DNA from: Methanobacteriota archaeon | GTDB taxonomy: Archaea > Thermoplasmatota > Poseidoniia > Poseidoniales > Poseidoniaceae | Direction of reading: 5' to 3' | Assembly: GCA_038130705.1 (NCBI GenBank) | Contig: JAYPOA010000003.1 | Location: 1 to 62,530, forward strand | DNA length: 62,530 nucleotides | Part shown: piece by piece, positions 6,502 through 40,828 of the stretch | Numbering within the stretch: the stretch's first letter is position 1 | Layout of the letters: the number at the start of each line of letters is the position of its first letter | Made by a program: the position numbers and the translations under genes | Notes under the pieces: generated by a model | The model's database searches: none | Seen by the model: the letters and a program-made list of their open reading frames with translations, nothing else | What the model was told of the DNA's origin: nothing

Positions 6502-6509
6502 AATTTCAC

Positions 6510-12316: not shown

Positions 12317-12405
12317 TTAAGGACCCCTTAAATCGGTGAGGTGTGACATGATTATTGAAGTATGCGGATAATGGTCACTCGAATAATCTTCCAATTAAAG
12401 ACAAA

Positions 12406-18111: not shown

Positions 18112-18266
18112 TATTCTTTACACGCAAACCAACCTTAATAGAGTGATGGAACAATGTTCAGACAGTAACTCTCCTGACTTGTTGTTTTTTGCTGTGAAAA
18201 ATAGCAATTAACTGAGGAATCATAGGTTAATTCAAAGGCCATACGCGATGGCCTCAGTTAGTTCAC

Positions 18267-19085: not shown

Positions 19086-19141
19086 CCCTATTTTAATGTC
19101 AAATTGGTCAAACCATAAGAGGGGGGAATTATCTCTTCAAC

Positions 19142-22697: not shown

Positions 22698-25229
22698 TCA
22701 ACGACCCATCACTGCATTATGAACCATCATTTGCACTTCACGCATTCGAGTTTGTGCTCCCAGTTCTCTAAATACTGACAAAGCTCTTTGGAGGTATTCC
22801 ATACGTCGTTGCCTGTCTGGTGCCACTCCACCCAGCCTCGCTAATAGTTCTCCAATTTGCATACGTAAGTCGTTAGCTTCTGAAATAATCAGAGCCTCTC
22901 TGTACCGTTCAAGAGCATCTTCGATTCTACCACTGTCTTGAAGAACTTCACCCAGGAGTATTGACACCTCAACTAATGCGAGTGGGTCTCCTGCTTCACC
23001 CATAGTTTCTAAAGCTCCAGTATAGTGATGCAATGCTAAATCAGCGTCTCCTGTTTTGGCATAAAATCTACCCAAAACAGCACGTGCTCTGGCATGTAGA
23101 ATCAAATCCTCAGTGTCAACAGTACGCTCGTATGATGAAAGTGCATGATCTCTAGCCCTGTCTTCTTTCCCTAGGTCTAATAGGGACCTTGCTAGAACAA
23201 TTTGTGCTGGTATTAAGTCTTCAGAGTCATTTGAAGAAAGGATTTTTTCGACTTCAGAGTATGCATCAAGTGCTTTTTCTTTGTCCCCCCTTCTCCTGAG
23301 GATATATCCCATGTTGTTGTAAGATCTCGCCGCGCCAAGTGCATTATTTTGCGCAATAAATAATTCCAAAGCTTTAGTGTGCATTTCTAAACTTGAATCT
23401 GGCTCTCCTCTCTTCAGCGCAATGTCTGCGAGATTGGAGAGAATATCGGCAATGATTTCATCCAAGCCTGCTTTTTCAGCAAGTGGTTTAGCCTTATTGA
23501 ATGCTTCTTCAGCTTCATCGAACCTACCCAATAATGAAAGAACTTCGCCCCGAAGCCTGTCGATTTTACATGCACTTTCAGGAGCGATAGAATCTAATTC
23601 GATTGCTACCAACAGATGTAATAATTCTATGTGACCTTCCTTAATCAGATCACGTCCACGTTCAATCACGATTTCAACAGCATTTTCATGTCTTGAAGAT
23701 GATATCAAATGGTATATCTTCTCCATTGCTACTGAACTACTGTCAGTCTGATTTTCGTACCATGATACTGCTTTGTTGTGTAATTCTTCTTTTGATTGGC
23801 GATCTAGACTTTGGAGTAAGAATTCCCTAATTAAGTCGTGAACATCGTAGGTATCAGAGTCGGCTTGCCTTGCAAGTCCTGATTCTACTAACTGGTCTAA
23901 TTCATCAACGCTCAATCCTTGTACCGTAATTGCTTCAAGAGGAATTGGCTCTCTGTACACAGATAATGCACCTAAAAGCCTCTTCTGCTCACCAGATAAT
24001 TTTGAAAATATTTCGATATTGACGTAATTCTCAAGGGTTTCATGGAAGGCTCCGGCGGATGCTCCTCTGTTGATTAATTCAATAATTAATGGGTGACCTC
24101 TACTCAGGGAATGTATGTAAAGTAATTTTTCTTCCTCTATATTATCAAATGCAGTCAGAAGTGACCTTGTAGAATCCTGGTCCAATCCTTCCAATGGCAG
24201 AACGAGCGAAACAATTTTGCCTTCAGCATCTTTTAGCGGAACAACTTCTTTGAAAGACCTAGAAAATAATACCAGACCTATTTCACCTTCATATTCAACT
24301 AGTCCTCTTGATATTGCTTGAATGGTTTGGTGTAATGAGATGTCGCTTACTTTGTGATAATCATCTATTACAATAAGGGAAGGAGAATTTGACAATGCAT
24401 CTAAGATTAATCTCGCAGCATCTGTTGGTTGAGGAACAGGAGTTGCTGAAATGTAATCTGCCAACATAGAATCGCCGAGGCTCGACAACCAATCCGCAAT
24501 AGTTTCAAAGAATGCCCTACTACCATCCCAATCCTGACAACGATGGTATAGAAGGTTCCTCTGATGTGTAAATGATTCAATCAGTTTCGCAGCCATAGTG
24601 GTCTTACCGATTCCAGCAATACCCGGGACCATAAGAGTAGTAGGCCTTGCTTCGAGTAAATTTACCATGTTCTCTAATTCCTTTGAACGCCCGTAAAAGT
24701 GTCTTATTCTTGGTAAATCACTAAGACTTGATACCAACTGCTTTTCAACATGCTTAGTCAAATCACGCTCAACTAAATCAGCAGAAAGTGACCTTACATC
24801 AAGAATCGAATTATCATCAAGGTACCTAATTACGTCTACTGGACGCATTGAAAATGGCAATTGGTCCTGTATTTCACCCAATGTTGAACTGATTGTTTGT
24901 CCACCTGGTAGGATTGCTCTTAATTTGAAATCACGCAATCTCTTCCATGTTTCATCAGCTAGAGAAATCCCTGATTCTGTAAGAAAATATGCCTTTCTCT
25001 TTCGACTAACACCCTGAACGTGAGCTTGTCTTTCCACTAACAATCCTTGGTCTTTAAGTCCTGCAATAGCACGAGGAACGTTAGACCTTGCTATGGCTAC
25101 TGCGTTTGCAATTCCCATTTGCGAAAGAGAAAAAGGTACTTCAACAGAGCTCATGAAGTCTGAAAAATCAGACAGGTGAAGTAGAATCCTCTCCTGTACA
25201 CCTGGTTTGGGCCCCGATACCATCATCAC
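22698..25229 (-). CDS. STAND-type regulator: N-terminal winged-HTH + AAA/Arch-ATPase NTPase + C-terminal TPR array
   Basis: wHTH-like N-terminus (FSLSQMGIANAVAIARSNVPRAIAGLKDQGLLVE). Walker A VPGIAGIGKTT (nt 24600..24629). Walker B LIVIDDYH. C-terminal TPR-like repeats (NNMGYILRRRGDKEKALDAY, GRFYAKTGDADLALHHY, and others). Confidence 0.85.
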   Translation of the reverse strand: MMMVSGPKPGVQERILLHLSDFSDFMSSVEVPFSLSQMGIANAVAIARSNVPRAIAGLKDQGLLVERQAHVQGVSRKRKAYFLTESGISLADETWKRLRDFKLRAILPGGQTISSTLGEIQDQLPFSMRPVDVIRYLDDNSILDVRSLSADLVERDLTKHVEKQLVSSLSDLPRIRHFYGRSKELENMVNLLEARPTTLMVPGIAGIGKTTMAAKLIESFTHQRNLLYHRCQDWDGSRAFFETIADWLSSLGDSMLADYISATPVPQPTDAARLILDALSNSPSLIVIDDYHKVSDISLHQTIQAISRGLVEYEGEIGLVLFSRSFKEVVPLKDAEGKIVSLVLPLEGLDQDSTRSLLTAFDNIEEEKLLYIHSLSRGHPLIIELINRGASAGAFHETLENYVNIEIFSKLSGEQKRLLGALSVYREPIPLEAITVQGLSVDELDQLVESGLARQADSDTYDVHDLIREFLLQSLDRQSKEELHNKAVSWYENQTDSSSVAMEKIYHLISSSRHENAVEIVIERGRDLIKEGHIELLHLLVAIELDSIAPESACKIDRLRGEVLSLLGRFDEAEEAFNKAKPLAEKAGLDEIIADILSNLADIALKRGEPDSSLEMHTKALELFIAQNNALGAARSYNNMGYILRRRGDKEKALDAYSEVEKILSSNDSEDLIPAQIVLARSLLDLGKEDRARDHALSSYERTVDTEDLILHARARAVLGRFYAKTGDADLALHHYTGALETMGEAGDPLALVEVSILLGEVLQDSGRIEDALERYREALIISEANDLRMQIGELLARLGGVAPDRQRRMEYLQRALSVFRELGAQTRMREVQMMVHNAVMGR

Positions 25230-25251
25230 ATCTCCAAATATATCCGCTCAC

Positions 25252-28200
25252 TTATTGTTGTGGGGGGCGATAATTTGGATCGGCGACCCATTGGTTAGAA
25301 TTCGCATCCCATATCCAGCCTGGATGTTGAGGTTGTGATACCGGAACAGGAGCTGGAGCAGGAGCAGGGGTTGCTTGTGCAGTTGCAGCGACCTTAGCCT
25401 TAGCCCATGCGTATGGGTCTTTTTCCTGTTCTTGAAGTTCTGATAGTTCCATTTCATCATCAATTTCTTCAAATTCAACGAAGAAATATGCACCAATACC
25501 TGCGAGCACTATGACTGCAATGATAACGAGCACTGTAATCAACCAAGTAGACATACCTTCGGATTCTGGGTCACCGGATTGTAGAGAAATATCTACACCA
25601 TCATCCATACCTATTGTTTGAGAGTCACTCTGCTCGAAGAAAATGTCATAGTTACCATCATCTCCTAATTGGGATGATGTTATCTCCATTTTCCACGTTC
25701 CGTCAGGCTTAACAGTGGTTGTATTGAGATAAATTTCACCTTTCACTTTCTTCGCAGTAACCTGAGAACCAGGTAAGCCAGTTCCCCTGAATTCAGCAGA
25801 GTCTTCAAACACAACAACTCCTGTATCGATTCTTTGAGCGCTGAATTGAACTCCCTTAACCATGAAGCTTACCGGGTATGATACAGCAAGGGAATCGTGA
25901 ATATCTCTTGCTTCAACTATTACGTTAATTAGGGACCAGTCAGAAATTTCTGACGAAATCAGATACTTCGAATTCATAGGATTGTAGGTTAGTACTCCGT
26001 CTGGAGAGATCAGAATGTGGTCAAAGTAGTCGTCATCTTCAACAGTTGCTGGACTATCGTAAATATTCCAAGTGAAGTGCTGAGTTGAAGGGCCAATGCC
26101 ATCTGAATCGTTAAAGAAATCCAGCAGATTGATATTTGCACTCTCACATCTATCGAAACTTGAGGATTTTTCGTCACAGAATATTGTCATTGTATCCGGC
26201 CAGTTGTCTTCGTTAACGAATAAAGGAGCAACATTGTCCGCCGCAGTCGGGTTATCGATGATTATTCGAACGCTTTCGATATTTGAATAATCAATCCCAT
26301 CATACGCTTTTACCCTTAGTTCGTATTGTTGGTCATGAATTAGGTTGCTTGTATCCCAATAGGTTGCCCAAGCACCATTTGATGCAAATGATGTAATCGG
26401 GTCTGGACCGTTGTTTAATTCAATACCACTAGCAAGGTCGATTACACTAATCTCGAGCCTGGTAACTTGTCCATCATTATCCCTAGCAACACCACTGATC
26501 AGTGTTTCTTCGTCAGCCCTTATGACGTCATTAGGGAGTGGGTCGCTAATTTGAACGATAGGGATTCTGTTATCGTTATCAATAGTAATTGTAACAACAT
26601 CAGGAGTACATATATCTATTACCTCACGACAATAATTCGAATCACTCGCCCAGACAGTGAATGTATAATCTCCACTTGGAAGGGCTGAGAAATTCCAAGA
26701 GTCAGCCCAAGTAGGGGCACCTCCACTTTCAGCAGCGTAGTTTGCAGAGTAATTATTTGGACCCACAACTGAAAACCAAATATCTGCAATATCGCTTCCT
26801 TGAACTCCTTGGTAATTATCTGATGCAGTACCACTAAAGAGGACTTCTTGGCCATCGTGTGTTGAACCATCAACAGGAGTTTCTAGATTGATTGTTGGTG
26901 GATTAATATTCAATTTGAATACTCTTGTAACCACAGTAGATTCATCTATACCATCAGTAGATCTTACTCTGAAAGTAACATCGTCTTCAAAGTGGTTTGC
27001 CATATCCCATTCAAAACTCCATGTCTTGTAAGGCCAATTTGTCATTGTAACTTCACCATTTGCTCCAGAAGTGTCGGTAGCTTGGTACCAATCCTGACTT
27101 CCATGTGGCTGAATTTCTACTTTCTTCACCACTCCAAATTGACTTAAGTATGAATCATAATCACTAAAATAAGGTCCTGAATTGCCATCGTGTGCTGAAC
27201 CTGAGAGGACTACATTCCTTGCAAATGAGGTCCCATCATTCTGTGAGACCATTACAGAAGGTGCCATGTTTGATAGGTGAACTACCTCATCCACCATCCC
27301 TGTTAGATCGAAATCATGAGATGATGTGCCTTTACCGAATCGAGAAGCTTCAACTGAGTAACTTGGCATCTCCCTTCCTCCAGATTGACAATCTGAGTCT
27401 TGGCCGTCTTTCAGCGTGTCTCCATCATTATCGATGTAATCGCCACATGAATTTTCTCCAGGGTCTGTCACATCATGGTCCCAGTTAGTGTCTATGTGGA
27501 AATCTGAAGGCAGTGAAATCCACGGAGTGTAACCATATGCGTCAGTTGTCAAATTGTAGAGTGAACGCCCTGCTGCATCTTTGATTTTGACTAATGCTTC
27601 ACTCACTTGTGAGTTATCTGCCTTGACTTGATACCTTACTAGTTCAGCTTGCTCTACTTGTACACCCCATGCTGTATTTTGGTTCTGAACATGTATCTTT
27701 GAGCGATCAAAGTTTTGAACGTCAGAAAAGGTAAAAGTCGTGGCATTTTCCTTAAGCTCCATAGACAATGGCATCCCCATAGGTGGCCAATCAGCAGTAA
27801 GTGGAACCAAAAGACACTCTGAAATATCAGTATCACATTCTGCACCAAGCCATGAAAGTTGGACTGGATACAATGTATTGTTACCTGGGTCAGGAACTAT
27901 CTCGCTTTGGATTGAAACACGCGATTCGGTTACGTTGTAAACTTGGGATGCTCCACTGTAAGTATTGTCGTTGAAGTATGCGATTGAACCATACTTGCTC
28001 CCATAATTGTCATCATAATGCGAAATGTTGGCTGCAAAAGCCCCTGCGGTAACTATGCTGTTGCCCTGTGCATTGACGATTCCACCTTTGATTCTGAATC
28101 CATCGCCTATGCTATTTGTGACAATGTTATTGATGAAAGTTGCAGATGACATGTAAACGTGGAAAGCAGGGCAGGGGAAATCTCCGCCGTACATTGCTTG

Positions 28201-29535
28201 AGAGGTACATGTTCCTGAATTGTTAGAAATCTGGTTGTTTGCAAAATAAAGTCTTGATTTGGTTGGGCTTGGGACATTCCAACCCTGGTCTTTGTGGTGA
28301 TATTCGCCAATCAACACTGGTTCCTTTCCAGTGTCAAGGATTGTATTATTTTCTGCAGAGACATCTGATTCCCCGTATATCCAGAATCCATTCCATCCGC
28401 CAATTGGCCCTATTGTATTTTCATTTGCTGTGACGTATGACGACCTGATTCCAAATCCTGATCCTTCAGCGGCTCCTGAAATCGTGTTTCTATTTGCAAC
28501 TACAATTGCTTCGTCGTAAGCTGTAATTCCTGCACCCTCTGCGGTTGTTATCGAATTGTCTTCTATGAAGAAGGTGTATTTTGTAGTACCAGTAGTTAGG
28601 TGAGAGTTTGTGTCAATTGCGTTACATTTGATGTCCATAGAAGAATTTGTGAGGTAGCCACTTGAAGACCTCAAAAATGCACCATATGAGTTTTGAGACA
28701 CTGTAATTGCATCCATCCTTACGAACGAATCCTCAAGGTATATCGCAGATCTACCGCCACCTTGAGAGCCACAATCGGTTTCCGCACCTGTAAATGCGGA
28801 ATTCAAAATTTGCATTACAACTAGTCCTGCCCCAGCACCATATGCTTGGATTGCAGCTCCTTGGAAACCTTCTTCGTCGACACCAACTTCGAAAGTTCCT
28901 CCATCCAGTGTGGGAGATGCTCCGTTGATGGCTAGAACGTTTGTTGTGTTGATATCCGTGAAGCTCGGGTTAGCTACGGAAAGAGATGCACCATCGAATA
29001 CCAGTGCACCGTACTTCCAATTGCCCTGCCCTGTGATGTCCACAGGGATTCCATATGCACCATCTATCACAATGTGATTCATCCTTGTAGCCGCCTGATC
29101 TATTGTTGAATCGATGTAAATTCCTGAACCACAGGACTGGTCAGGATTCCAAAGTCCTGTAAAGTAACAGCGTGCTGTTAGGTTACCACCAGGAGCATTT
29201 CCCCAGATGAATCGAATCGGAGAACCTGTGCTTGCTTGTGTAGCACCACAAGACGAGTCCCCTGCACAAATCGACCCCTGAATATTGATGTTCTTGTCAT
29301 AGGGAACATTGATTGTAGTGCCTGCGTTGATAATTAGTTTAGCACCGCCAGCGATGAGTAAATCGCCATCTAAGTTGTGAACACCCATCCAGGTTTCTGT
29401 TCCAGTAATGGTTCCAGAACTGGTTTCGTTTATTGCCGTTACAGGTGGAATGGTTGTTGCCATCGCCACGAATAGTGACATCATGAAAATACTAACAATT
29501 CCAATGCTTTTTGTCCTCTGTGCTAAAACCGACAT
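25252..29535 (-). CDS. giant (1,427 aa) secreted right-handed beta-helix (PbH1-like) surface protein with Ig-like domains, C-terminal TM anchor and Pro/Ala-rich Trp tail
   Basis: Signal peptide (IGIVSIFMMSLFVAMATT). Repeated N-N-x-I/V turns (ENNTILDTGKEPVLIG, NNQISNNSG, NNIVTNSIGDGFRIKGG, GNSIVTAG). One TSP3-like loop (DYIDNDGDTLKDGQDSDC). Ig-like modules. TM WLITVLVIIAVIVLAGIGAYFFV and a 74-aa tail. Confidence 0.85.
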   Translation of the reverse strand: MSVLAQRTKSIGIVSIFMMSLFVAMATTIPPVTAINETSSGTITGTETWMGVHNLDGDLLIAGGAKLIINAGTTINVPYDKNINIQGSICAGDSSCGATQASTGSPIRFIWGNAPGGNLTARCYFTGLWNPDQSCGSGIYIDSTIDQAATRMNHIVIDGAYGIPVDITGQGNWKYGALVFDGASLSVANPSFTDINTTNVLAINGASPTLDGGTFEVGVDEEGFQGAAIQAYGAGAGLVVMQILNSAFTGAETDCGSQGGGRSAIYLEDSFVRMDAITVSQNSYGAFLRSSSGYLTNSSMDIKCNAIDTNSHLTTGTTKYTFFIEDNSITTAEGAGITAYDEAIVVANRNTISGAAEGSGFGIRSSYVTANENTIGPIGGWNGFWIYGESDVSAENNTILDTGKEPVLIGEYHHKDQGWNVPSPTKSRLYFANNQISNNSGTCTSQAMYGGDFPCPAFHVYMSSATFINNIVTNSIGDGFRIKGGIVNAQGNSIVTAGAFAANISHYDDNYGSKYGSIAYFNDNTYSGASQVYNVTESRVSIQSEIVPDPGNNTLYPVQLSWLGAECDTDISECLLVPLTADWPPMGMPLSMELKENATTFTFSDVQNFDRSKIHVQNQNTAWGVQVEQAELVRYQVKADNSQVSEALVKIKDAAGRSLYNLTTDAYGYTPWISLPSDFHIDTNWDHDVTDPGENSCGDYIDNDGDTLKDGQDSDCQSGGREMPSYSVEASRFGKGTSSHDFDLTGMVDEVVHLSNMAPSVMVSQNDGTSFARNVVLSGSAHDGNSGPYFSDYDSYLSQFGVVKKVEIQPHGSQDWYQATDTSGANGEVTMTNWPYKTWSFEWDMANHFEDDVTFRVRSTDGIDESTVVTRVFKLNINPPTINLETPVDGSTHDGQEVLFSGTASDNYQGVQGSDIADIWFSVVGPNNYSANYAAESGGAPTWADSWNFSALPSGDYTFTVWASDSNYCREVIDICTPDVVTITIDNDNRIPIVQISDPLPNDVIRADEETLISGVARDNDGQVTRLEISVIDLASGIELNNGPDPITSFASNGAWATYWDTSNLIHDQQYELRVKAYDGIDYSNIESVRIIIDNPTAADNVAPLFVNEDNWPDTMTIFCDEKSSSFDRCESANINLLDFFNDSDGIGPSTQHFTWNIYDSPATVEDDDYFDHILISPDGVLTYNPMNSKYLISSEISDWSLINVIVEARDIHDSLAVSYPVSFMVKGVQFSAQRIDTGVVVFEDSAEFRGTGLPGSQVTAKKVKGEIYLNTTTVKPDGTWKMEITSSQLGDDGNYDIFFEQSDSQTIGMDDGVDISLQSGDPESEGMSTWLITVLVIIAVIVLAGIGAYFFVEFEEIDDEMELSELQEQEKDPYAWAKAKVAATAQATPAPAPAPVPVSQPQHPGWIWDANSNQWVADPNYRPPQQ

Positions 29536-29588
29536 AACATCGCCTCTAATCTTGGGATTAACAACACCAACTTAACACATTGGTATAG

Positions 29589-29602
29589 ATTTCAATTGAA
29601 AT
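29589..29602. promoter_or_regulatory. 14-bp palindrome ATTTCAATTGAAAT in the AT-rich promoter region of the 1,427-aa beta-helix gene
   Basis: Read directly, about 55-65 nt upstream of start 29535. It lies inside the longest non-coding stretch of the window (29536..29728), which also has AATATCAT twice (29622, 29674). Confidence 0.25.
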
Positions 29603-29728
29603 ATATCAAATAGAGCATAAGAATATCATATATTTGTTAAATAAAAAATAACATTGTATCATTTTTGAACAATAATATCATTTATTTATTCACCGAAAAA
29701 CAAGACCCAGTAGTCCGTTTTAGCGAAA

Positions 29729-30955: not shown

Positions 30956-30977
30956 TGATTATCCTTACATCTATTGA

Positions 30978-31015
30978 AGATATGTCTCGAACTACATAAT
31001 TGTCGAGACATATCT
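30978..31015 (-). promoter_or_regulatory. 13-bp perfect inverted repeat (AGATATGTCTCGA / TCGAGACATATCT, 12-nt loop) between the aglB-fusion stop and the subtilase start
   Basis: Read directly. It occupies half of the 76-nt intergenic spacer. On the transcribed (minus) strand it is preceded, not followed, by a T-rich run, so its role as terminator, processing site or operator is open. Confidence 0.4.
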
Positions 31016-31031
31016 CAATAAAAATTTACAA

Positions 31032-34000
31032 TCAGAACCTACTCGATGATCCCTTTCTTGCTACCTTGTATCCACCATATAATGCCAAGATTGTGAGCAT
31101 AAATATGACTACAGTGATCCACGGGGATTCTTCACCATCTGCAACGTTTGAGAATTTTCTCGAGAAGTCTACAGGTTCAACTGTGGAGTCAAGTGGTGTA
31201 TCTATGACATCCAATCTAACTCTCAGGTGTGCTGTTCCAGGAGGCAGATCTGAATATGGGAATTCAGCCCATTCTACATCTTGCGCTGCAATTCTGATTG
31301 TGGTTTGTTGGGTCGGATAGTCAGTACCTTCTTGAGATGCTTCAAGGTATACAATCACGTCTCCAGTTGACAAGAATCCAGTGTTTTCGATAGGCACTCT
31401 AAATATTCCATCCTGATTAGCAAACGCATCTGCATTTCTCGGCTCGATGCTCTCAATCAATATTGCCAAGTCAGCAACAGCAATCACAACCTCAGTCGAG
31501 GCAGTCTGGACTTCAAAGTCGCCTTCACTGGTGGCTTCGAATGCAACATCACAATCATCCAATGTGGAATTTGTCGGCGCATGAACAGTGAATGACTGAC
31601 TTCTGTCATTATTCGCTGCGATAGTTATGTTCGACAATTTGGGCGTGACATCCCATCCTGCGTCTACACATTCCTGAGGTATAGAGGATGTTATGGAAAC
31701 GGTGTCATCTCCATTTCCAAGGTTGTCAACTCTCAGAGTTACTATAACAGTTCCACCATCAGCAACACCGACAGATTCTGGTGCGTCTTCAAGAGTAATG
31801 TTGTATATTTGCGGTACTCTAACGACTACTGTTTCTTCGCTTAATCCACCATCTGCTGTAAATCTCATTTTTACAGTGTGTCCGTCATCATAGGTGATCG
31901 ACTGGTTCTGCAGTGGAAGAGTAATTCTAACATCAACTTGGGTCGTTAGTACCTGATTTTCATCAGAATTATTCTGGCCAATTCCCATTGTGACATTGAT
32001 GCTGTCAACCCAGTTTCCATCTGCATCCTTAAATTCAACTGCCCAGTACTCGGAGTCTTGAGTTAAGTCCAGTGATCCAGATGTACTGAACATATCTTCA
32101 ATTTCTGTTCCATCGTATGTAAGGTTTAGAGTCAACTCTATTACTTCATAATCATTAGAATCAGATTCTTTTGCATTTAACTCGGTTAAGTCATCAACGG
32201 AATAATCTGCCCCAGAATTGATTGAACCTATACTAACAATTAGGTCCGAGTCAACCTTCTTTGTAAATTGCATTTCCTTGTCAAGTGCTGTGTCCTGATC
32301 GATATCAACCACAATACCAGATGAATAAGGCATTGTTAGGTTAAGGTCGTGCTGTACTGTATCAAATTCACTTTCGAGGTCCACACAAGATTCGGCACCT
32401 TCACATGACGGAAGGACAATGTTAACTTCGCCATTGCTATCAAATGCTACATCCCATTCGATTTCTTCTCCAAGAGATATAGTAACGAATACGTCTTCAC
32501 CTACATCTCCTGCTGTCAGAACATTGTTCTGAATGTCAGTCCATGTGCTTGTTAATGCTAATCGGCCACCCTTTCTCATTTCGAGATCTAAGGAAGCACC
32601 TTCCTGAACTGATGCCTCTAATAATCCAACAGCGATTCCTCCACCGTTGTCATCGGTGTCTGTTCCTTCAACAAACACAATCCAGTTACCTGGCATGATA
32701 TTGTCAGACCATGATAAGGTGTCATCAGCATAAACCAGATTAGTAATTACAACCGGGTCTCTGACGATTCCAGATGCAGGATATAATGTCACTTTTGCGT
32801 TCTCTAACCTCATTGCGGTGGGTACGCTGTCAGTTACGTTACCTGACACAGAAACAAGACCTGCTGTTAACTCTAAGTCTCTGCTTTCGTGTGTATCATT
32901 CACAACATAAGCATAAGTTGTGTTGTTTTCGGTGACATATGTTGCTGAATCGAATCCTAATTTTTCGGCATGAATATCATAATCATCTCTGATTGGAACG
33001 AAGACAGACCAAACACCTTCAGCATCTGTCTGTAATGTCCAGTTCCATCCTTTAACAGCTGTGACATTAACTGTAACATTTTCGACTCCTTCTCCCAAGG
33101 ATGGCAAATCATCGTCATTCAAGTCCCAGAATATCTTTCCACCAATCAACACGTATTTGTTAATCTCAACAACACCAACATTCCAGCTACCGTTGTCTAG
33201 GTTATCGGAGAGGTAAACTCCTTCTTCCAATATCCACTGTTCGAGAGTCTCTGTTCTTTCAAGGTGTAATGTCCAATCACCTGGCATTAGAACTTCGGAG
33301 ATGTTTCCGAAGTTATCAGATGGTCCGAGGCTCACATTTCCTAAACCTTCGTTGCTCACTGCAGTAATTCTGGTCGCAGTTACATTAACACCAGTAAACA
33401 TCTCTTTGAGTTGCATTGTTACAGGCATTGCGGTTTGTGTTTGCCAAGAAATATCTCTAACAGCACCAGTGATGTTCAAAACTCCTCTGAAGATTTCTGT
33501 CTCATTGCTGTCCTCAGCAGTGAAGTCTGCTACCTCTACGTACCAGAATCCAGCTGCAACATATTTGGCAAAGGAACCGTTTTCGTCTGTGTTTAGTGGA
33601 TGGAAATCATCCCCTGCTTCATTTCTTAGCCAGACTGTTGAGTTCGCAAGTGGCATGCCATTCTCAGATGTCACGTTACCTGTTACAAGATATTCTGGAA
33701 TTATTGGAATTGATAGAGGCTCACCAGATGGCCCCAATCCTATGTTCAAATTCGGTATGAAATCAGACTGTAAGTAATAGTCAGTTGCATTTTCATCAGT
33801 TGGAAGAGTTGGTGACAACTCGATAGAATATTGACCCACTGACAATTCTACAGTTACTTCTCCAGTTGCCATGTCATAGTCATCTGGTATTACAGTAGCA
33901 TTGATACCGATATCGCTCATAGAAACGATGTCAAATGATGGCATTATTGCGCTTCCATTTTCCCATGTTCCGTCTGTAGTATCAAGGAATATTCTGAAAG

Positions 34001-37000
34001 TAACAGATACGTTGTCAGGTTTTGCAATCAAATCAACTGGTTCCATTTCATATCCTGAATTGTTTTTCAACACTGGCTCAACATTCATTAATTCATTTGA
34101 AACTGTGTAAGTCCAGTTACCCTTGTTTAGATTGAATGTAAATGTTCCAGAGCTGTCAAGTTGTGACCTCCATTCTAATCCATCATCGTTAGTTGCAATG
34201 ATTTCTATCTCTTGAGACCCTGGGATTTCATTACTCCAAACAGCACCTGATCCGTTTGTTATTGAATCTCTAATGTATACTGTACCCTCAACATTTCCTG
34301 TGTTGAGCAAGTAAATATTACCACTTTCAAGGTTTGATGCATTTTCTACAAGAATTCCTCCTGCGTAGGTAGACGAGCCAGAGAATCTGTCCGCTGTGAC
34401 GTGGAATACCATGTTTTCTGGTAATCTCATTGAGAAATTACCATCAAAATCTGATATTGTGTCGATAATTATTGTGCCTGAACGAGCTTCTATCTTCACG
34501 TTGCTTGCTGGCTCAATAGTGGCGTTAGATGGGTCATTCAGATAAATATCTGTTAGATTCGATAATGATTCACCGTTGTCAAGTAGAATCTCCCCCTCTG
34601 CTCTGACGCTGTACAAAGTAGCGTTAATCCAAACGCTAACTGAGTAAGTAAGGTCTAATTCGATGTCATCTGATTCTATATCAAATTCATTCCAAAGGAC
34701 ATATTCTTCATCTCCCTCATCAGAAACAATCCAACTTCCTGTGAATAATTCAACATTAACTACTCCATTTTCGTCAGAAACTGCAGTTTCTATAATCGGT
34801 AACAAGTCTGTGCTTTCTGTATTGGTGAAAGTCAGTGTTCTGTTAGATAGATCTAATCCTGAATTTCCAGCATCCAAATTAATCGTCAAATCCTGCTTTT
34901 GCGGTATGAACGCAGCGAGAGAAATATTCTCAGAATCTTGACCTACTGTAAAGTTCATTGACATCTCATACCAACCATCTCCATCAACGTCAACTCTCCA
35001 TTGGTACTCACCTGCAGCGATTGGACCGTAACTGAAGTTTCCTTCTTCATCAGTGATGATTTCTGCAATTGGCACATTTTCATCAATATCCAAATCAAGA
35101 AGTTCAATCGTCTGATTAGGTAGTGGTTCTGGCGCTCCGGTTTCAGATGACTGTGTCAATAGAGTATCAGCAAAGATAGAACCTGGTAGTACCATGTCGA
35201 GGTTATTAGTTGGAGTTAGTCCAACTTCAACTGGGTCTGGAAGTAATACTTCTTTTCCATTTGGCATGATAGCAATCATGTTGTAAGTACCTGGTAAAAT
35301 TCCGGTCTTGTAGAATGATCCTGGAGCAACCATATCACCAGAGAAAGTTCCCTCACCAATGAACAAACCAGTACCGTTTGCAGTTCCAACTCCCTCAAAC
35401 AGACCTGTTCCTTCGAAGGTTTCTCCGTCAAGATACTTGACAACAGTAACTGGGCCTTCGGCGGTCATTCTTCCAGTGGCATTTATTTCTCCCATGAAGT
35501 AATAAGTGTCAGCCTCATTTGTTAGACAAACAACATGAGTTGAGGTTACTGTTTCATTATCTACAGTCTCATTGAAACTTGGTAGCTCTGGATTTGCCGA
35601 TTCATTTGAGTATTCACAAGATGGAATCGTGTGCTCATACTCAACTGACGTTGCAACTATTGTTCCTGCGCCACTGAATGTTGCACTCGCTGTGTACGAC
35701 CTTCCATCATCAACAATTCTTGTGAAATTACCAGTGAAACCTCTGACAATAGCAGGGTTACCTTGCGTATCAAATGAACCATTATTAGTGAATAATACTT
35801 CACCGGTTCCTTGGATAATTCTAGAATTACCATCTTCAGTTGTAAATGAACCACTGGAGGTTGATAATGTGTAATTGGAAGTCATGCTCCAAATGTTCTT
35901 CAAGATAAAGTCAATACCATCTAATGCTTGACCTTCGAAAGATTCGTTACCAGTCCAGGTGACGGTTCCAGAAATTCCACTAGAATCAACAGCAATATCG
36001 AAGGTATCATCAAATGTTGCTAATCTGTCAGCTTGTTGTCCTGTGATATTGTAAGTTACTTCACCCATCCATGTCATGTTGGATACCTTTCCAAGAAGGG
36101 CAGTTAGTACGTTGGTTTCACGGTCTTCGTTCACATCAACAGTCAAATCTCCAAGACCACTTGAGTATTCGTTTGCTTGGAAACTGTCCTTAGCAAGTGC
36201 GTCATCAAACACACCTGCATATGCAGATGCTCTGATTTTTCCTGCTGGTGCTATGAAACACCAGTTTCCATTTTCATCAGTATCTGTATTACCGATTGGA
36301 ATCCAGTATGTATCGCTGTCAAGGTCGGTCTCATCCTCTCCCGAGAAAGCGTCTCTTTCAATTAGAATTCTGACATCAGAGAGAGGCTGTCCATTATCAG
36401 ACATTGTAACCTGTCCACAAATTTCTGCTCCTGCATAATACTTCATCACCTTAACAAGGGTATTTGATGAACCAAGACCATCGTTTGGATCTTCTGCATT
36501 ATACCAGTTTGCAATTACCATGTGGTTCATCATTGCACCAGGCATTGGCAATGCGTTGGTTAGTATTGAATTTGGAGTACCTGATTGTCCCCAGTGTTGT
36601 CCTGGTTGTTCAGTTGTTGCAAATCCAAGGTTCGGAGAACCGTACCCGATGTAGGTTCTTGCAAGCATAGTATCGAAGAATGCAGGCTTGTGGTCTACTC
36701 TGACGTCTACCAACTGTAGAGGGTCAAAGTCTTGACCAGCCTGCTGATTTAGGATATCCTTCTTCATTTCTTCATCGAATTCCTCTCTGGTCATTTCATC
36801 GTTGAATTGGCCTCTTGAAGTCATGTAAACCTCATCCATGAAGGTTGAGAAGTCCTGACCTGATAGAATTGAAACAGGTGCGAAAATTCCAGTTGGGTTG
36901 CCACCGCTATATTCGGAGTTGTAGCTTCCACCACGAGGGTATAACTTTGTATCAACTGCTAGATATCTGATTTCATGGTCTCTGGTAATCATATCACCAG

Positions 37001-40000
37001 GTGCTCCCTCATAATCCTGAACTGAATAGACCCTGTTGTTTGATAGGTCAGCGAACATTGTGTGTAGCGTATCTGAATCCAGAGATGAAGTTAACAACTG
37101 TGTAATCAAAGCAATTCTAGCGTTTGTGCGGTGGATACCTGTACTTACCGAATCGTATTCTTCAATCAGGTCTGAAGTGTACCAATAATCTCCAGCGATG
37201 TAATAGGTCGCTTCTGTCTTTGTGTCAGCAGGTGACCTGACATTGTTGTTGAATACTGATTCAGCATTTGCGAAATTTAGGTACGCATCACCACTACAGA
37301 TTTCTACTTGTCCTTCATCAGGTATACACGGAATTATTTCTCCATCCTCGTATACTTTGTACATCATTGGTCCGTCTGTATCGACAATTCCGTCGACGAT
37401 ATTGTAACCTTGAGCTAGCACAACATCTCCATTTGTGTGAGTTACTTCATATAGTCTCTCAATAACATCTTCAGAGTCTAAATTGGTTTGAATCTTTACG
37501 AATTCAGATACCTGCTCATCCGAGAGGTACTTACCAATTGTTTGTACGAACGAGTTAGTGTGAACGTTGTTATCGTCATTAGCCAAGTTGTAACTCAAAT
37601 CTGCTTGTGACAATCTCCAGATGAACATCGCAGCGAGGTCATCTTGGTTTCTTGACAATAGCATGTTACCTGCTGCAGAAATACCAGACTGGAAGTTATC
37701 TGCTACTGAAGGGTGGTCTCCAGTTTCAAGTGCTTGGAAACCATAATCCCACCATGATACGAATGCTGGCTTATCGGAATACTTCATCAAACACACGCTT
37801 CCTGAAGAGTCCCAGTCACCTGAGACATCATCACACGCTGATTTTGTTGTGACCCCGACGTGATGTACGTCTTGGTTGGCTAACCATTCGTATGCTAAAT
37901 TCCAACCTCTATCGTTAAATCCTGATCCAAATGAACCAAGATACCATCTTGAATTGTCATCGTATGATGAATCATCGAGTAATGAGAATCCGAAATCGTT
38001 CCATCTTAGGATATCTGGAGCTATGTTGTAAATTGTTTCATCCATGTTTGATTCATGAACAGTTGATGAAGGCATTGCTGCGTCTAATCCATAAGTAGCA
38101 TGCTGAGAGAATATCAACATCAAAACAAGACCAATTGCGCTGAATTGTGGAGTTCTCCAAACAGCTTTTCTTGCGTTAGAGATTCTCTCTCCTGGGGTTC
38201 TAATTCCCATTCTTCTCCACTTCTTCGCCATTTCACCGGCACCGCTTGCTCTCCATAGTCCTGTGATACCCCAAGCTCCCATGACAGCCATTGCAGGTGC
38301 TGCGTTGAAGAGGAATCTTCCAGCTGACCAAGCCATGTAGGATGCGACAAGAACCCACATACCCAAAATTAAGTGAGGCTGATTTTTCTTTACGATTCCA
38401 TCCCACAAAGCGATGAATCCCATTACAATCGCAATAACGAAGACGATTGGCCCGAATGATGCGAATAATTGACCTCTACTCGGAGCACTTGCTTCAGCAA
38501 TTGTTCCGAAAATCTTGTTCTTTGTGAAGTATCCTGAACCAGTGGTAAGTACTTCCCATGCGTTGGAGAGTTCCGCCAGTTGCAGTAAGTACAAAGCCAA
38601 ACCAAATACGAAACCACCTGTGAATAAAGAACCTAGGACCAATAGCCATGGTTTATCTCTAAATCCAGTTGTAATCCAAGCGATTGCTAATGTGAACACA
38701 GCAATGAATACAAGCGGTTGTAGACCGGTTGAATTCCAAACTAAATCCAACTGTGGGTGTGCATAGAACGGAATTACCATGACAAATATTGTACCTAATA
38801 ACAGCAAATTGATTGTTGAAATTGTGGTGCTGTCTTTCTTTCTCAACAAGTTCATTGCAACCTGAACTACGTATGCAAGGAAGATAATTGCAGGACCGTA
38901 TACGAATCCCTTCCAACCCAATGCTACGATACCAAAACATACACCAGCCGCTATGGCATTCATTGATGCAGTTCTCTTTTCTTTCATAACAACCCCGATG
39001 GCGTTGTATATTCCAGACGGCCAAGCGTTAGTCGTACGAGATAGTCTTTCATCTCCGCCGTGCTTAATTGCACGTAGATAGAACATGAATGCCGCAGTCA
39101 GGAACAGCAACACAAACGAGTCGTGGTCAGCCATAGCCCAAGTTGATTTTTGAACGTGGGTCGGCATGAATGCGATTAACCAAGCAGCAAGAACTCCAGC
39201 GCCTTTGCCGAAGTGGTCCTTTGCTATTCCAGCCATAGGGAACACAATTAGTGCACCAAAAATTGCTGGTAGAGCCAGCATTGAATACCAAACAGCCTCG
39301 TCAGATGACAAACCAAGGTTAGTCAAGAGCATTGCACCCATTGCCATCGACCATGAGAATAGAGGTGGTCTTGGGTTGATGCCTCCAACAGGATAATTTC
39401 TGTCAGCATCCCAAATTAGATGTGCATTTTCTACGATGATATAGTCTACTACTCTCTTCATGTACCACGGGTCAGAACCTCCAGTTAAGTCCCATGATTC
39501 TAAGCCGGAGGAATTCATAGATGGTACGAAATACCACTGAATTCTAATCGCTAAACCTGTGAGGAATGCCAGGAAGACCATGATTCCTGCCCAATGGTTG
39601 GACCAGAACACCTTGGCCTGACTTGGCTCGTGTGATTCACGGTTTTTCCATCCTCCGTATTGCTCGTGCGTGGCAAACCAATAGATTACGACACCTATGA
39701 AGAAGGTTATACCAAACCAAATCCATACAGCCCATGTTCCTTCAAGTCTGTCGCTTTCCCAATGAGCTGACTCATACAATGACGAAACGATGTATAACAA
39801 CCACATTGAACCGATAAACAAGGTTCTTGTGTACCACTTCTCAGCGGCCATCCAGGCACAGACTAATGCAACAACACCGGTAAGGGCTGCAGGCCAGAAC
39901 CCAATATATCCGTGATAATTGTCTAAACCAGAGATTCCAAGAATGTTAAGATCACTCAGTGTACCGAAATAATACAGAGTCAGAATGTGGGTTAAGGCCC

Positions 40001-40691
40001 AAACTCCAAGTCCAATTTGAAGTGGAAGTGTTGCTTTGTTCCACTTCCCATCTACAGGTTTGATGTAGCCAAACCATCCAACATCAGTCGCAGGAGTAAG
40101 TACTCCTCTCAAGAGGACAGCTGCGAGTAATCCGAGTACGGAAAAGATACTCCAGGTACTAAAGAAGACGTATCCAACTGCCTCTTGCCATGCTCCGTTT
40201 CTTACATACTCTTCACCTTCAATTACAAGGAGATTAGTTTGCGTATCGGCAAAGTTTGCTGCTGAAACAACAGCAGTCCACAAACCGACCATGCTGAATA
40301 CAAGAACAGTGTTCCATTCGTGCCTACCGCTGTTGTCGAGAAGATATCCGCCAAACATGGTCACCAAGAAAATCATGGCGACGAAGTTGGAATCTGCAAG
40401 ACTTGCAACAACGTTGGAAAGTATCAGTGAAACAATCAATACAGCGAGGGAAACAGATGCTGTAGGGAATGTTATGATTTCTTTCTCACGCAGATAGCGT
40501 GGAGTCATTGCCAAAATTGCACCCAAGGCAATCATGGCAAATGGTGTCATCTCATTCATTTCCAGAACTAAACCGAAATCTAGTCCATAATCCGCTAACA
40601 GAGCCAACAAAATCGCGATGGGTGCTAATAGCCACCCAAGCATAGGTTCTGGGGCTCCAATTTTACTGTCGTTTTCTGTCGACATTTTCAT
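31032..40691 (-). CDS. aglB: giant (3,219 aa) oligosaccharyltransferase AglB/STT3 fusion: extra polytopic N-domain + STT3 core + ~1,800-aa beta-sandwich repeat extension + C-terminal TM
   Basis: WWDYG at nt 37740..37754 (FVSWWDYGFQ). EL1 acidic motif GGSDPWYMKR. TIxE-type motif GTIAEASAP. Many TM helices. The extension has repeated CarboxypepD_reg-like patterns (CGQVTMSDNGQPLSDVRILIE...TDENGNWCFIAPAGKIRASAY; TGNVTSENGMPLANSTVWLRN...TDENGSFAKYVAAGFWYVEV). CARDB-like modules lie near the end. Terminal helix WITVVIFMLTILALYGGY. Confidence 0.9.
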   Translation of the reverse strand: MKMSTENDSKIGAPEPMLGWLLAPIAILLALLADYGLDFGLVLEMNEMTPFAMIALGAILAMTPRYLREKEIITFPTASVSLAVLIVSLILSNVVASLADSNFVAMIFLVTMFGGYLLDNSGRHEWNTVLVFSMVGLWTAVVSAANFADTQTNLLVIEGEEYVRNGAWQEAVGYVFFSTWSIFSVLGLLAAVLLRGVLTPATDVGWFGYIKPVDGKWNKATLPLQIGLGVWALTHILTLYYFGTLSDLNILGISGLDNYHGYIGFWPAALTGVVALVCAWMAAEKWYTRTLFIGSMWLLYIVSSLYESAHWESDRLEGTWAVWIWFGITFFIGVVIYWFATHEQYGGWKNRESHEPSQAKVFWSNHWAGIMVFLAFLTGLAIRIQWYFVPSMNSSGLESWDLTGGSDPWYMKRVVDYIIVENAHLIWDADRNYPVGGINPRPPLFSWSMAMGAMLLTNLGLSSDEAVWYSMLALPAIFGALIVFPMAGIAKDHFGKGAGVLAAWLIAFMPTHVQKSTWAMADHDSFVLLFLTAAFMFYLRAIKHGGDERLSRTTNAWPSGIYNAIGVVMKEKRTASMNAIAAGVCFGIVALGWKGFVYGPAIIFLAYVVQVAMNLLRKKDSTTISTINLLLLGTIFVMVIPFYAHPQLDLVWNSTGLQPLVFIAVFTLAIAWITTGFRDKPWLLVLGSLFTGGFVFGLALYLLQLAELSNAWEVLTTGSGYFTKNKIFGTIAEASAPSRGQLFASFGPIVFVIAIVMGFIALWDGIVKKNQPHLILGMWVLVASYMAWSAGRFLFNAAPAMAVMGAWGITGLWRASGAGEMAKKWRRMGIRTPGERISNARKAVWRTPQFSAIGLVLMLIFSQHATYGLDAAMPSSTVHESNMDETIYNIAPDILRWNDFGFSLLDDSSYDDNSRWYLGSFGSGFNDRGWNLAYEWLANQDVHHVGVTTKSACDDVSGDWDSSGSVCLMKYSDKPAFVSWWDYGFQALETGDHPSVADNFQSGISAAGNMLLSRNQDDLAAMFIWRLSQADLSYNLANDDNNVHTNSFVQTIGKYLSDEQVSEFVKIQTNLDSEDVIERLYEVTHTNGDVVLAQGYNIVDGIVDTDGPMMYKVYEDGEIIPCIPDEGQVEICSGDAYLNFANAESVFNNNVRSPADTKTEATYYIAGDYWYTSDLIEEYDSVSTGIHRTNARIALITQLLTSSLDSDTLHTMFADLSNNRVYSVQDYEGAPGDMITRDHEIRYLAVDTKLYPRGGSYNSEYSGGNPTGIFAPVSILSGQDFSTFMDEVYMTSRGQFNDEMTREEFDEEMKKDILNQQAGQDFDPLQLVDVRVDHKPAFFDTMLARTYIGYGSPNLGFATTEQPGQHWGQSGTPNSILTNALPMPGAMMNHMVIANWYNAEDPNDGLGSSNTLVKVMKYYAGAEICGQVTMSDNGQPLSDVRILIERDAFSGEDETDLDSDTYWIPIGNTDTDENGNWCFIAPAGKIRASAYAGVFDDALAKDSFQANEYSSGLGDLTVDVNEDRETNVLTALLGKVSNMTWMGEVTYNITGQQADRLATFDDTFDIAVDSSGISGTVTWTGNESFEGQALDGIDFILKNIWSMTSNYTLSTSSGSFTTEDGNSRIIQGTGEVLFTNNGSFDTQGNPAIVRGFTGNFTRIVDDGRSYTASATFSGAGTIVATSVEYEHTIPSCEYSNESANPELPSFNETVDNETVTSTHVVCLTNEADTYYFMGEINATGRMTAEGPVTVVKYLDGETFEGTGLFEGVGTANGTGLFIGEGTFSGDMVAPGSFYKTGILPGTYNMIAIMPNGKEVLLPDPVEVGLTPTNNLDMVLPGSIFADTLLTQSSETGAPEPLPNQTIELLDLDIDENVPIAEIITDEEGNFSYGPIAAGEYQWRVDVDGDGWYEMSMNFTVGQDSENISLAAFIPQKQDLTINLDAGNSGLDLSNRTLTFTNTESTDLLPIIETAVSDENGVVNVELFTGSWIVSDEGDEEYVLWNEFDIESDDIELDLTYSVSVWINATLYSVRAEGEILLDNGESLSNLTDIYLNDPSNATIEPASNVKIEARSGTIIIDTISDFDGNFSMRLPENMVFHVTADRFSGSSTYAGGILVENASNLESGNIYLLNTGNVEGTVYIRDSITNGSGAVWSNEIPGSQEIEIIATNDDGLEWRSQLDSSGTFTFNLNKGNWTYTVSNELMNVEPVLKNNSGYEMEPVDLIAKPDNVSVTFRIFLDTTDGTWENGSAIMPSFDIVSMSDIGINATVIPDDYDMATGEVTVELSVGQYSIELSPTLPTDENATDYYLQSDFIPNLNIGLGPSGEPLSIPIIPEYLVTGNVTSENGMPLANSTVWLRNEAGDDFHPLNTDENGSFAKYVAAGFWYVEVADFTAEDSNETEIFRGVLNITGAVRDISWQTQTAMPVTMQLKEMFTGVNVTATRITAVSNEGLGNVSLGPSDNFGNISEVLMPGDWTLHLERTETLEQWILEEGVYLSDNLDNGSWNVGVVEINKYVLIGGKIFWDLNDDDLPSLGEGVENVTVNVTAVKGWNWTLQTDAEGVWSVFVPIRDDYDIHAEKLGFDSATYVTENNTTYAYVVNDTHESRDLELTAGLVSVSGNVTDSVPTAMRLENAKVTLYPASGIVRDPVVITNLVYADDTLSWSDNIMPGNWIVFVEGTDTDDNGGGIAVGLLEASVQEGASLDLEMRKGGRLALTSTWTDIQNNVLTAGDVGEDVFVTISLGEEIEWDVAFDSNGEVNIVLPSCEGAESCVDLESEFDTVQHDLNLTMPYSSGIVVDIDQDTALDKEMQFTKKVDSDLIVSIGSINSGADYSVDDLTELNAKESDSNDYEVIELTLNLTYDGTEIEDMFSTSGSLDLTQDSEYWAVEFKDADGNWVDSINVTMGIGQNNSDENQVLTTQVDVRITLPLQNQSITYDDGHTVKMRFTADGGLSEETVVVRVPQIYNITLEDAPESVGVADGGTVIVTLRVDNLGNGDDTVSITSSIPQECVDAGWDVTPKLSNITIAANNDRSQSFTVHAPTNSTLDDCDVAFEATSEGDFEVQTASTEVVIAVADLAILIESIEPRNADAFANQDGIFRVPIENTGFLSTGDVIVYLEASQEGTDYPTQQTTIRIAAQDVEWAEFPYSDLPPGTAHLRVRLDVIDTPLDSTVEPVDFSRKFSNVADGEESPWITVVIFMLTILALYGGYKVARKGSSSRF
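36420..39600 (-). other. STT3/AglB catalytic core region within the giant ORF (about residues 365-1424)
   Basis: Boundaries come from my manual residue count. STT3 TM1 is at about residues 365-388, followed by the SDPWY loop. WWDYG is at residues 980-984. The first prealbumin-like repeat begins at about residue 1425. Confidence 0.6.
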
Positions 40692-40740
40692 TTCCCTCTG
40701 TTTTTTTGTCCAGCCTTATGGCTGTAGCGTTGTGGCGACC

Positions 40741-40752
40741 AAAGGGCCCTTT
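40741..40752. promoter_or_regulatory. 12-bp palindrome AAAGGGCCCTTT next to an ATAAAAAG TATA-like box upstream of the aglB-fusion gene
   Basis: Read directly, about 50-60 nt upstream of start 40691 in the 137-nt purD-aglB spacer. Confidence 0.2.
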
Positions 40753-40828
40753 TTATGCGTTCCCTACGGGTATTTCCACTGCAACCCTCAGGATATTATT
40801 AAAAACGCATTACTGAAGACTTGTTTTT

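Follow-up and report, generated by a model that had tools for sequence, protein, structure and literature searches.

Do the genes clustered around a giant oligosaccharyltransferase (OST) of Poseidoniales make up one cell-surface system, and what would such a system consist of? The question is raised by a 62,530-nt stretch of DNA (contig JAYPOA010000003.1, hereafter the window) from a Poseidoniales (Marine Group II) archaeon, whose AglB homologues carry the names Candidatus Poseidoniales or Poseidoniaceae. The list of open reading frames (ORFs) and Pfam searches place four consecutive genes on its minus strand, encoding a giant AglB/STT3 fusion of 3219 aa (31032-40691), an S8 subtilase of 408 aa (29729-30955), a beta-helix/Ig protein of 1427 aa (25252-29535) and a protein of 843 aa that joins a winged helix-turn-helix (wHTH) to STAND and TPR domains (22698-25229). 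A preliminary description of the window had assigned the same four identities, all correct according to Pfam, and had given spacers of 76, 193 and 22 nt, which match the ORF list. The purD gene (40829-42145), 137 nt upstream of AglB, is also on the minus strand, so the co-directional run comprises five genes rather than four. We found no described system of such composition in the searchable literature, as the preliminary description had surmised, nor any account of a giant AglB fusion. We lean towards reading the block as a core envelope locus that encodes a self-glycosylating OST/surface-coat protein together with a receptor-regulator pair, organized as separately promoted units.

The block belongs to the core genome of Poseidoniales

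We compared the window with seven metagenome loci (L001-L007), the locus L009, 80 GTDB species-representative loci and the published metagenome-assembled genome (MAG) SIMO Bin 19-2. The GTDB species representatives were scanned with an alignment of the STAND protein, which yielded 505 encoding stretches, and the best 80 of these 505 loci were inspected. The genes for purD, AglB, S8, beta-helix and STAND proteins keep the same order and orientation in loci whose AglB is 93, 64, 57, 44 and 40% identical, and order and orientation of the block are identical at every Poseidoniales locus examined, which answers in the affirmative the earlier question of whether it is kept as a unit. The best 80 of the 505 loci are collinear up to the contig ends, with AglB, S8, beta-helix and STAND genes, a pilin-like operon, a metallo-beta-lactamase (MBL) hydrolase gene and a gene for a 1901-aa protein. 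Genes 303-310 of SIMO Bin 19-2 are ordered as in the window, with the four-gene block at 305-308, and the eggNOG seeds of this MAG lead to an equal run, MG2_1279-1285, in the first MG-II genome, where the block order is found in MG2_1279-1283. The four-gene block stays intact despite changes in its flanks, where the pilin operon is present or absent, carS is inverted and insertions occur upstream of purD; L009 retains the block even though it has a rearranged stretch upstream of purD and no pilin operon.

Since it is conserved at the same site across lineages despite these rearrangements, the block is a core-genome, vertically inherited envelope locus of Poseidoniales and not a mobile island. 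The preliminary description had asked whether the block varies like an accessory island; an accessory or horizontally acquired surface island we regard as practically excluded. Specifically, the block occupies the same place in all lineages, its GC content of 0.40-0.45 is indistinguishable from that of the flanks, and no integrase, tRNA or repeat boundaries of the block were found, the only tRNA gene in the window being a tRNA-Met (CAT) at 47748-47822 (minus); nothing was found in favour of an island. At the deepest comparison, identity is 67% for the STAND protein, 63% for purD, 53% for the beta-helix protein, 48% for S8, 55% for the transmembrane (TM) core of AglB and 34-35% for its distal extension.

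A giant AglB with a sequon-dense ectodomain

Pfam STT3 (PF02516) matches residues 406-802 of the giant AglB with 62.1 bits against a cut-off of 24.5, and CarboxypepD_reg matches the protein with 85.5 bits. The STT3 membrane core and the external catalytic/peripheral domain were assigned to residues 356-1420 (36432..39626, minus) on the basis of invariant motifs, and the TM core is the best conserved segment of AglB, with 55-97% identity. As demonstrated by alignment, D407 pairs with D47 of yeast Stt3, D522-H523-D524 with D166-N-E168, and W980-W-D-Y-G984 with the yeast WWDYG motif, while T730-I-A-E733, read from the sequence, fits the TIxE motif and would lie in external loop 5 (EL5). Residues D407, D522/H523/D524, T730, A732, E733 and W980-W-D-Y-G984 are all invariant in 26 orthologues. 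By eye, no DK/MI motif (Ser/Thr pocket) was identifiable in residues 1000-1420, where the AlphaFold2 (AF2) model is of low confidence. A Foldseek search with the AF2 model of residues 1-1200 gave A. fulgidus AglB and yeast/mammalian STT3 as the 12 best matches (E 9.5e-6 to 7e-3, probability 1.00), and from rank 13 onward the probability was at most 0.09. The NCBIfam model TIGR04154 archaeo_STT3 (archaeosortase-A-associated) scores 163.8 bits, under its cut-off of 450. Judged by its motifs, the giant AglB is a catalytically intact STT3-type OST, and it is conserved in length: the orthologues, named Poseidoniales/STT3, form more than 120 clusters of 3138-3245 aa with 44-93% identity at 99-100% coverage. 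It also appears to be the sole OST, since in SIMO Bin 19-2, the one MAG whose full annotation was examined, no gene but the giant one gives a strong GT66 match; as an apparently sole OST, it would serve the whole exported proteome.

Characterised AglBs are roughly 600-1000 aa long, against 3219 aa in the window. The giant AglB resembles A. fulgidus AglB-L (3WAK/7E9S) and yeast Stt3 (6C26) in the STT3 domain, D407, D522-H-D524, TIxE and WWDYG, but adds to the characterised AglBs a 355-aa polytopic N-domain, a sequon-dense beta-sandwich ectodomain of about 2,200 aa and a second, C-terminal anchor. The N-terminal extension (residues 1-355; 39627..40691, minus) contains about 7-9 helices according to hydropathy and the AF2 model, whose pLDDT is 70-88 over residues 14-290, and it carries many residues that are invariant across the 26 orthologues. 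In isolation it matches no Pfam family. An origin as an internal duplicate of the STT3 TM core was considered and rejected (hhalign probability 0.4%). An exhaustive search of representatives returned a second tier of AglBs from other Thermoplasmatota, of 2100-2775 aa and 30-37% identity, which lack the N-terminal extension, their match beginning at about query residue 360. These proteins share with the giant AglB the WWDYG motif, the sequon-rich extension and the terminal TM segment with a basic tail.

Downstream of the catalytic part, Pfam, NCBIfam and iterated HMM searches delineate an array of beta-sandwiches of CarboxypepD_reg/prealbumin/NOMO-like type (residues 1421-3185; 31137..36431, minus), with at least five repeat copies by iterated HMM and matches to the NCBIfam model 'choice_anch_T'. 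The 1765 aa of this array hold 52 N-X-S/T sequons (2.95 per 100 aa) compared with 0.2 per 100 aa in the remaining AglB, which is the highest density among the ORFs of the window and gives the whole protein a z of +5.2 against shuffles. This density is conserved in all 26 orthologues (2.06-3.13 per 100 aa) and is comparable to that of S-layer proteins with the heaviest glycosylation. The array is followed by the second anchor (31035..31136, minus; hydropathy), formed by a TM segment at residues 3189-3211 and the tail ...K.AR.GSSSRF-COOH, whose terminal [RK]F is kept in the 26 AglB sequences examined. The preliminary description had called the giant proteins of this region sequon-rich in general; this stands for the AglB extension and, weakly, for the 1901-aa protein (z=2.3), but not for the beta-helix protein or a 1788-aa protein encoded nearby.

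These features suggest that AglB combines an enzyme and a major structural glycoprotein in a single chain. The OST would glycosylate its own tethered ectodomain in addition to other exported proteins, and the glycosylated ectodomain would form a glycan-covered arch or rod within the surface coat. Like S-layer glycoproteins (Sulfolobales SlaA, Haloferax SLG), the extension is large, exported, beta-rich and tethered to the membrane at its C-terminus; unlike them, it is covalently part of an OST. No S-layer family of Pfam or NCBIfam matches the AglB extension or the beta-helix protein. With NOMO of the BOS complex it has in common a long string of CarboxypepD_reg-type beta-sandwiches that ends in a C-terminal TM anchor, but the rod in the window is fused to an OST and is sequon-dense, and the matches are sub-threshold (22.4 vs 27 bits), so that no claim of homology is warranted. 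Pfam NOMO1-like families are weak in the AglB of the window and matched in several orthologues.

The surroundings of the second-tier giant AglBs were seen in two non-Poseidoniales loci. In L008 (1-9762), an 8356-aa ORF and a 1077-aa Ig/PKD protein are co-directional and immediately upstream of the giant AglB, and in L010 (1-5810), a 4565-aa transglutaminase/CarboxypepD_reg/PKD protein is divergent and about 4 kb upstream of it. Both loci lack S8, beta-helix and STAND neighbours.

The beta-helix protein and the STAND protein form a candidate receptor-regulator pair

The beta-helix protein matches Beta_helix (35.1 bits) and Big_7 (37.3 bits) in Pfam and is a type I membrane protein, with a signal peptide, a TM segment at residues 1324-1358 and a cytoplasmic tail of about 70 aa. 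In the AF2 model (pLDDT 79.8), a right-handed beta-helix head sits atop about six Ig-like domains. Foldseek searches with this model returned stalks of Ig/FN3 receptors and adhesins, with the HPI S-layer protein of D. radiodurans only at rank 43, and for the head domain, swamped by generic Ig/FN3 stalks, gave no informative match. The orthologues measure 1399-1518 aa and are found in Poseidoniales only. The tails of 67 orthologues conserve the motifs DPYAWAKAK and QHPGW[IL]WD..[ST]N.WV.DPNY, separated by a drifting linker; DPYAWAKAK is missing from the L009 tail. The tail of the window protein carries QHPGWIWDANSNQWVADPNY, and the tail alone has no match in Pfam. A tail of the same design is seen in the 1788-aa protein encoded at 6950-12316 (minus), which is also of type I (TM 1676-1698) and matches no Pfam family: a basic stretch, an acidic stretch and a P/A-rich linker are followed by the end LPEGWTMEQWAAYGHQY. 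The tails of the two proteins may represent a common cytoplasmic docking motif of large surface proteins.

The STAND protein matches AAA_16 (36.1 bits against a cut-off of 32.6) and numerous TPR families, TPR_12 among them (110.5 bits), and its Walker A motif, GIAGIGKT, is invariant. At the N-terminus, a winged HTH gives HTH_Crp_2/PadR/MarR-like matches, all sub-threshold, and its residues 31-90 are 90-98% conserved. No TM segment was found in the protein by hydropathy. TPR_MalT reaches 41.3 bits against a cut-off of 45, and the NCBIfam MalT and AfsR models score far under their cut-offs. All matches listed in the search for STAND homologues were orthologues of at least 65% identity, and these were from Poseidoniales only. 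The length of the orthologues is constant at 840-841 aa, and over its entire length the protein matches purD in conservation. Alignment of the orthologues places the likely start 1-2 codons inside the GTG-started ORF. Two irregularities of this gene were observed. In L003 (25400-27733), on a 1.16-Mb pilon-polished contig, the orthologue runs out of frame after residue ~733 and ends as a 777-aa product with an unrelated C-terminus, which is probably an assembly frameshift rather than a true truncation. In the DNA metagenome X1, one contig joins position 22292 to 25009 with an anchor of only 24 nt, omitting 2716 nt and thus nearly all of the gene; this junction probably reflects either an artefact of assembly or variation among strains.

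The spacers of the block contain several conserved elements. Upstream of AglB, alignment of six lineages, down to 40% AglB identity, revealed a promoter/leader region (40692..40828, minus) in which a TATA-like TAAAA box (40751-40755) is invariant and precedes the start codon by 64 nt. The conserved leader also holds a CAGCC....GGCTG stem that is retained to 40% AglB identity. The AglB-S8 spacer (30956..31031, minus) contains a TATA-like element, some 30 nt ahead of where S8 starts, and a hairpin at 30971-31022 with an RNA folding energy of -28.9 kcal/mol (z=-5.5). Hairpins of unrelated sequence occur in many orthologous spacers, with z below -2 in 36% of 58 distinct ones, and the hairpin may serve in processing, termination or stability. 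A search of the block against Rfam gave no match to an RNA family.

The 193-nt spacer between the S8 and beta-helix genes carries four TGATA(Y) direct-repeat boxes on the minus strand (29676-29680, 29657-29661, 29624-29628 and 29604-29608), which are invariant across five aligned lineages. Pairs of such boxes 19-20 nt apart, usually two pairs, are present in 65 of 66 distinct orthologous spacers; the pairs are separated by 33 or 23 nt depending on the clade, and the last box lies 74-83 nt ahead of the ATG. Nowhere else in the 62.5-kb window do such pairs occur, even when one mismatch is allowed, and in 44 loci of 22.5 kb, 77 of about 96 paired-box matches fall inside this spacer. A replication origin in this AT-rich repeat spacer was considered and rejected, as the window contains no orc1/cdc6 and shows no skew switch, and the boxes keep a fixed distance to the start. 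The STAND gene alone is without its own promoter; it follows the beta-helix gene after 22 nt that carry GGAG, and it looks co-transcribed with that gene. Based on these features, the TGATA boxes are a candidate operator of the beta-helix/STAND unit.

Direct-repeat arrays are the binding sites of MalT and other oligomerising STAND regulators. The STAND protein shares with the regulators MalT and AfsR a P-loop STAND NTPase, a TPR array as putative TPR/SUPR sensor and a DNA-binding domain, and its candidate target, like that of MalT, consists of short direct repeats arrayed ahead of the promoter under control. However, its DNA-binding domain is an N-terminal winged helix, where MalT has a C-terminal LuxR-type HTH and AfsR an N-terminal SARP domain; its host is an archaeon, and as ligand we propose a membrane-protein tail in place of a small sugar. 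In the mechanism that we propose, the ectodomain of the beta-helix protein would sense a surface or polysaccharide cue, and the TPR sensor of the STAND protein would read the cytoplasmic tail. NTP-dependent oligomerisation would then place the HTH domains on the TGATA boxes in a MalT-like manner, and this binding would autoregulate the beta-helix/STAND unit and perhaps also control envelope genes at other genomic sites.

A membrane-anchored subtilase between the two units

The S8 protein had been described as a membrane-anchored protease, which holds: Peptidase_S8 (PF00082) matches with 139.9 bits, and a single TM segment spans residues 62-88. This segment separates a tail of about 60 aa, placed in the cytoplasm because a basic stretch precedes the single TM, from a catalytic domain without prodomain that starts at about residue 106, only some 20 residues past the membrane on the outer face. 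The motifs VDTGID, HGT, GTSD and AAGNDG, which supply the D/H/S triad and the oxyanion Asn, are at least 90% conserved in 51 orthologues, as is the cytoplasmic motif PEP.D.RI.SA.D....G.Q..WR.EV.GW.P. From these motifs, S8 is an active-site-intact subtilase. The orthologue alignment places its likely start at the second ATG, 30949. The N-terminal tail alone has no match in Pfam, and an exact look-up of the window protein returned no record.

The best matches in the PDB are intracellular subtilisins without prodomain, and the top NCBIfam model is mycosin, with 128.8 bits under a cut-off of 278.75; no genes of a type VII secretion system were found in the window. With mycosins and intracellular subtilisins S8 shares the triad and the lack of an I9 prodomain, and with mycosins also a single TM anchor that keeps the catalytic domain beside the membrane. 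Mycosins are anchored C-terminally, whereas the anchor of S8 is N-terminal and bears a conserved cytoplasmic tail. S8 would cut membrane-proximal sites of surface proteins in maturation or shedding, possibly those of its neighbours. A role as the processing enzyme of the locus is plausible.

The block is transcribed in situ

Normalised transcript coverages are available for the genes of SIMO Bin 19-2 in samples FN66 and FN71 (supplementary file 4 of PMC9723583). The preliminary description had named expression as a check, and in these data the homologues of all four genes are transcribed, namely AglB at 0.350 and 0.382 (FN66 and FN71, respectively), S8 at 0.177 and 0.156, the beta-helix gene at 0.159 and 0.183, and STAND at 0.192 and 0.185. 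These levels exceed those of flanking purD (0 and 0.084) and the MBL gene (0.013 and 0.050). Additionally, aglB goes up when that genus is active, with a log2 fold change of 2.05 (PMC9723583).

Neighbouring genes

Convergent on the STAND gene is a three-gene archaeal type IV pilin-like operon (19142-22697, plus; DUF7289/DUF7266/Pilin_N), which is present in all of the best 80 of 505 loci and absent at that position in L009 and SIMO Bin 19-2, an MGIIb MAG. Further along, the 1901-aa protein (12406-18111, minus) contains 19 D.D.DG-type motifs (TSP3-like, Ca-binding) in addition to its mild sequon enrichment. A 252-aa ORF (5743-6501, minus), previously taken for a metzincin lipoprotein, has a lipobox-like LSGC and a HEAGH motif, but the full metzincin motif HExxHxxGxxH is missing. 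It is followed by a pyroglutamyl-peptidase/NUDIX fusion protein (4408-5607, minus).

On the other side of the block, beside carS, a 550-aa ORF (42830-44482, plus) has a C-terminal TM segment (498-526), 11 sequons (2.0 per 100 aa) and no Pfam family. It evolves fast, with 29-89% identity against 63-93% for purD, and its orthologues give faint CARDB matches; its product is a candidate for a further surface glycoprotein. A nickel superoxide dismutase is encoded at 46994-47461 (plus), which an S24/S26-like peptidase adjoins in related loci.

Alternative explanations

Several observations weigh against the reading of the block as a self-glycosylating coat protein plus a receptor-regulator pair. No glycan-assembly (agl), flippase or sugar-nucleotide genes were found beside aglB, the nearest GT2 gene lying 27 kb off at 2869-3885; in contrast to agl clusters, this aglB is not embedded among glycosyltransferase genes but neighbours purD, carS, S8 and the beta-helix gene. 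For AglB residues 1-1200, the AF2 model is poor (mean pLDDT 57.6); it supports a coarse fold match and leaves the topology of the N-terminal extension tentative. The beta-helix protein contains 15 sequons where 15.2 are expected and, not being enriched, is not an obvious preferred substrate of the OST, which the sequon-enriched tail of the OST itself would be. The proposed contacts of the HTH with the boxes and of the TPR array with the tail are drawn from adjacency and conservation. All transcript data stem from a single MAG, which has low coverage and belongs to another family, and the log2 fold change of 1.91 of the beta-helix gene with genus activity is not significant (adjusted p 0.27; PMC9723583). 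In the runs X8, X9 and X13 (possibly RNA) and in one DNA run, contig coverage over 22000-41500 is flat and DNA-like and gives no operon signal.

The genes could also be neighbours by descent only, kept together in collinear, streamlined genomes, with a general OST, a nutritional S8 peptidase, a beta-helix protein acting as an adhesin or in polysaccharide binding or degradation, and unrelated regulation by the STAND protein. This we consider possible but rather doubtful. In its favour, purD, carS, the MBL hydrolase and the 1901-aa gene show synteny equal to that of the block, so gene order alone is weak evidence for functional coupling; AglB, S8 and the beta-helix gene each have their own promoter-like region, and with at least three such regions the four genes are not one operon; AglB transcripts are twice as abundant as those of the other three genes; and giant AglBs of other Thermoplasmatota lack these neighbours. 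Against it, the block is unbroken across flank rearrangements, and S8, beta-helix and STAND transcript levels are near-identical. Moreover, the 22-nt junction and the dedicated candidate operator argue for coupling of the beta-helix and STAND genes at least, and a protease of purely nutritional function would hardly be expected to hold its catalytic domain about 20 residues from the membrane and to conserve a tail in the cytoplasm. The preliminary description had proposed one dedicated cell-surface, adhesion or matrix system of about 35 kb (5743..40691). If this were one co-transcribed system, AglB would glycosylate the neighbouring giants and the regulator would control all, which we judge improbable. 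The region is indeed collinear in MGIIa-type genomes, several of its products are large surface proteins, and the cytoplasmic tail of the 1788-aa protein is built like that of the beta-helix protein. But it is interrupted by opposite-strand units (the pilin operon and the MBL gene) and served by several promoters. The MGIIb-type loci L009 and Bin 19-2 have no pilin operon, and downstream of the block Bin 19-2 shows one giant gene only, a second giant ORF and a zincin-like one being absent. Within ±10 kb, a single promoter has paired TGATA boxes, the beta-helix and 1788-aa proteins are not sequon-enriched, and AglB serves the whole exported proteome if it is the sole OST. Together, a single integrated system is only partly supported: conserved order, in-situ transcription and the collinear wider region speak for it, and the several promoters leave no single operon.

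Concerning the candidate operator, the TGATA repeats might instead serve another transcription factor or be repeated elements of the promoter resembling TATA or the B recognition element (BRE), which seems unlikely to us. In favour of this are the A/T-richness of the boxes and the site of the proximal one, 74-83 nt ahead of the ATG, which is a possible TATA position; furthermore, L009, the most divergent lineage, keeps the genes and has an identical HTH recognition region and yet no TGATA boxes, in an S8/beta-helix spacer of about 35 nt. On the other hand, TGATA always retains its G, the spacing of 19-20 nt and the pairing are strict while the flanks drift, a near-invariant wHTH is encoded in the same unit, and arrays of direct repeats are typical of oligomerising STAND regulators (MalT).

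Implications for the Poseidoniales cell surface

Poseidoniales are among the most abundant archaea of the surface ocean. To our knowledge, they are uncultured, their cell envelope is uncharacterised and has never been imaged, and we know of no Poseidoniales transcription factor that has been studied. A bolder view of the locus, which we offer as a speculation with the odds against it, is that the OST of Poseidoniales is their main structural surface glycoprotein, a doubly anchored, self-glycosylating rod or arch of about 20 beta-sandwiches (with a shorter form across other Thermoplasmatota) that would build a glycan coat without a recognisable S-layer gene. It would be combined with an archaeal mode of trans-membrane signalling not described before, with TPR reading of the receptor tail, perhaps also of the S8 and 1788-aa tails, and with oligomerisation on the TGATA repeats.

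The locus is thus core, vertically inherited equipment of these archaea and not the niche-specific adhesion island of the first reading. The beta-helix/STAND pair and its phylogenetically footprinted candidate operator define a concrete candidate circuit of regulation that is accessible to in-vitro tests. Should the only OST indeed be fused to a huge, glycan-covered ectodomain, this would be a new organisation of N-glycosylation, with the enzyme and its major substrate in one polypeptide. If true, it would also point to what covers Poseidoniales cells, which bears on virus attachment, particle adhesion and grazing.

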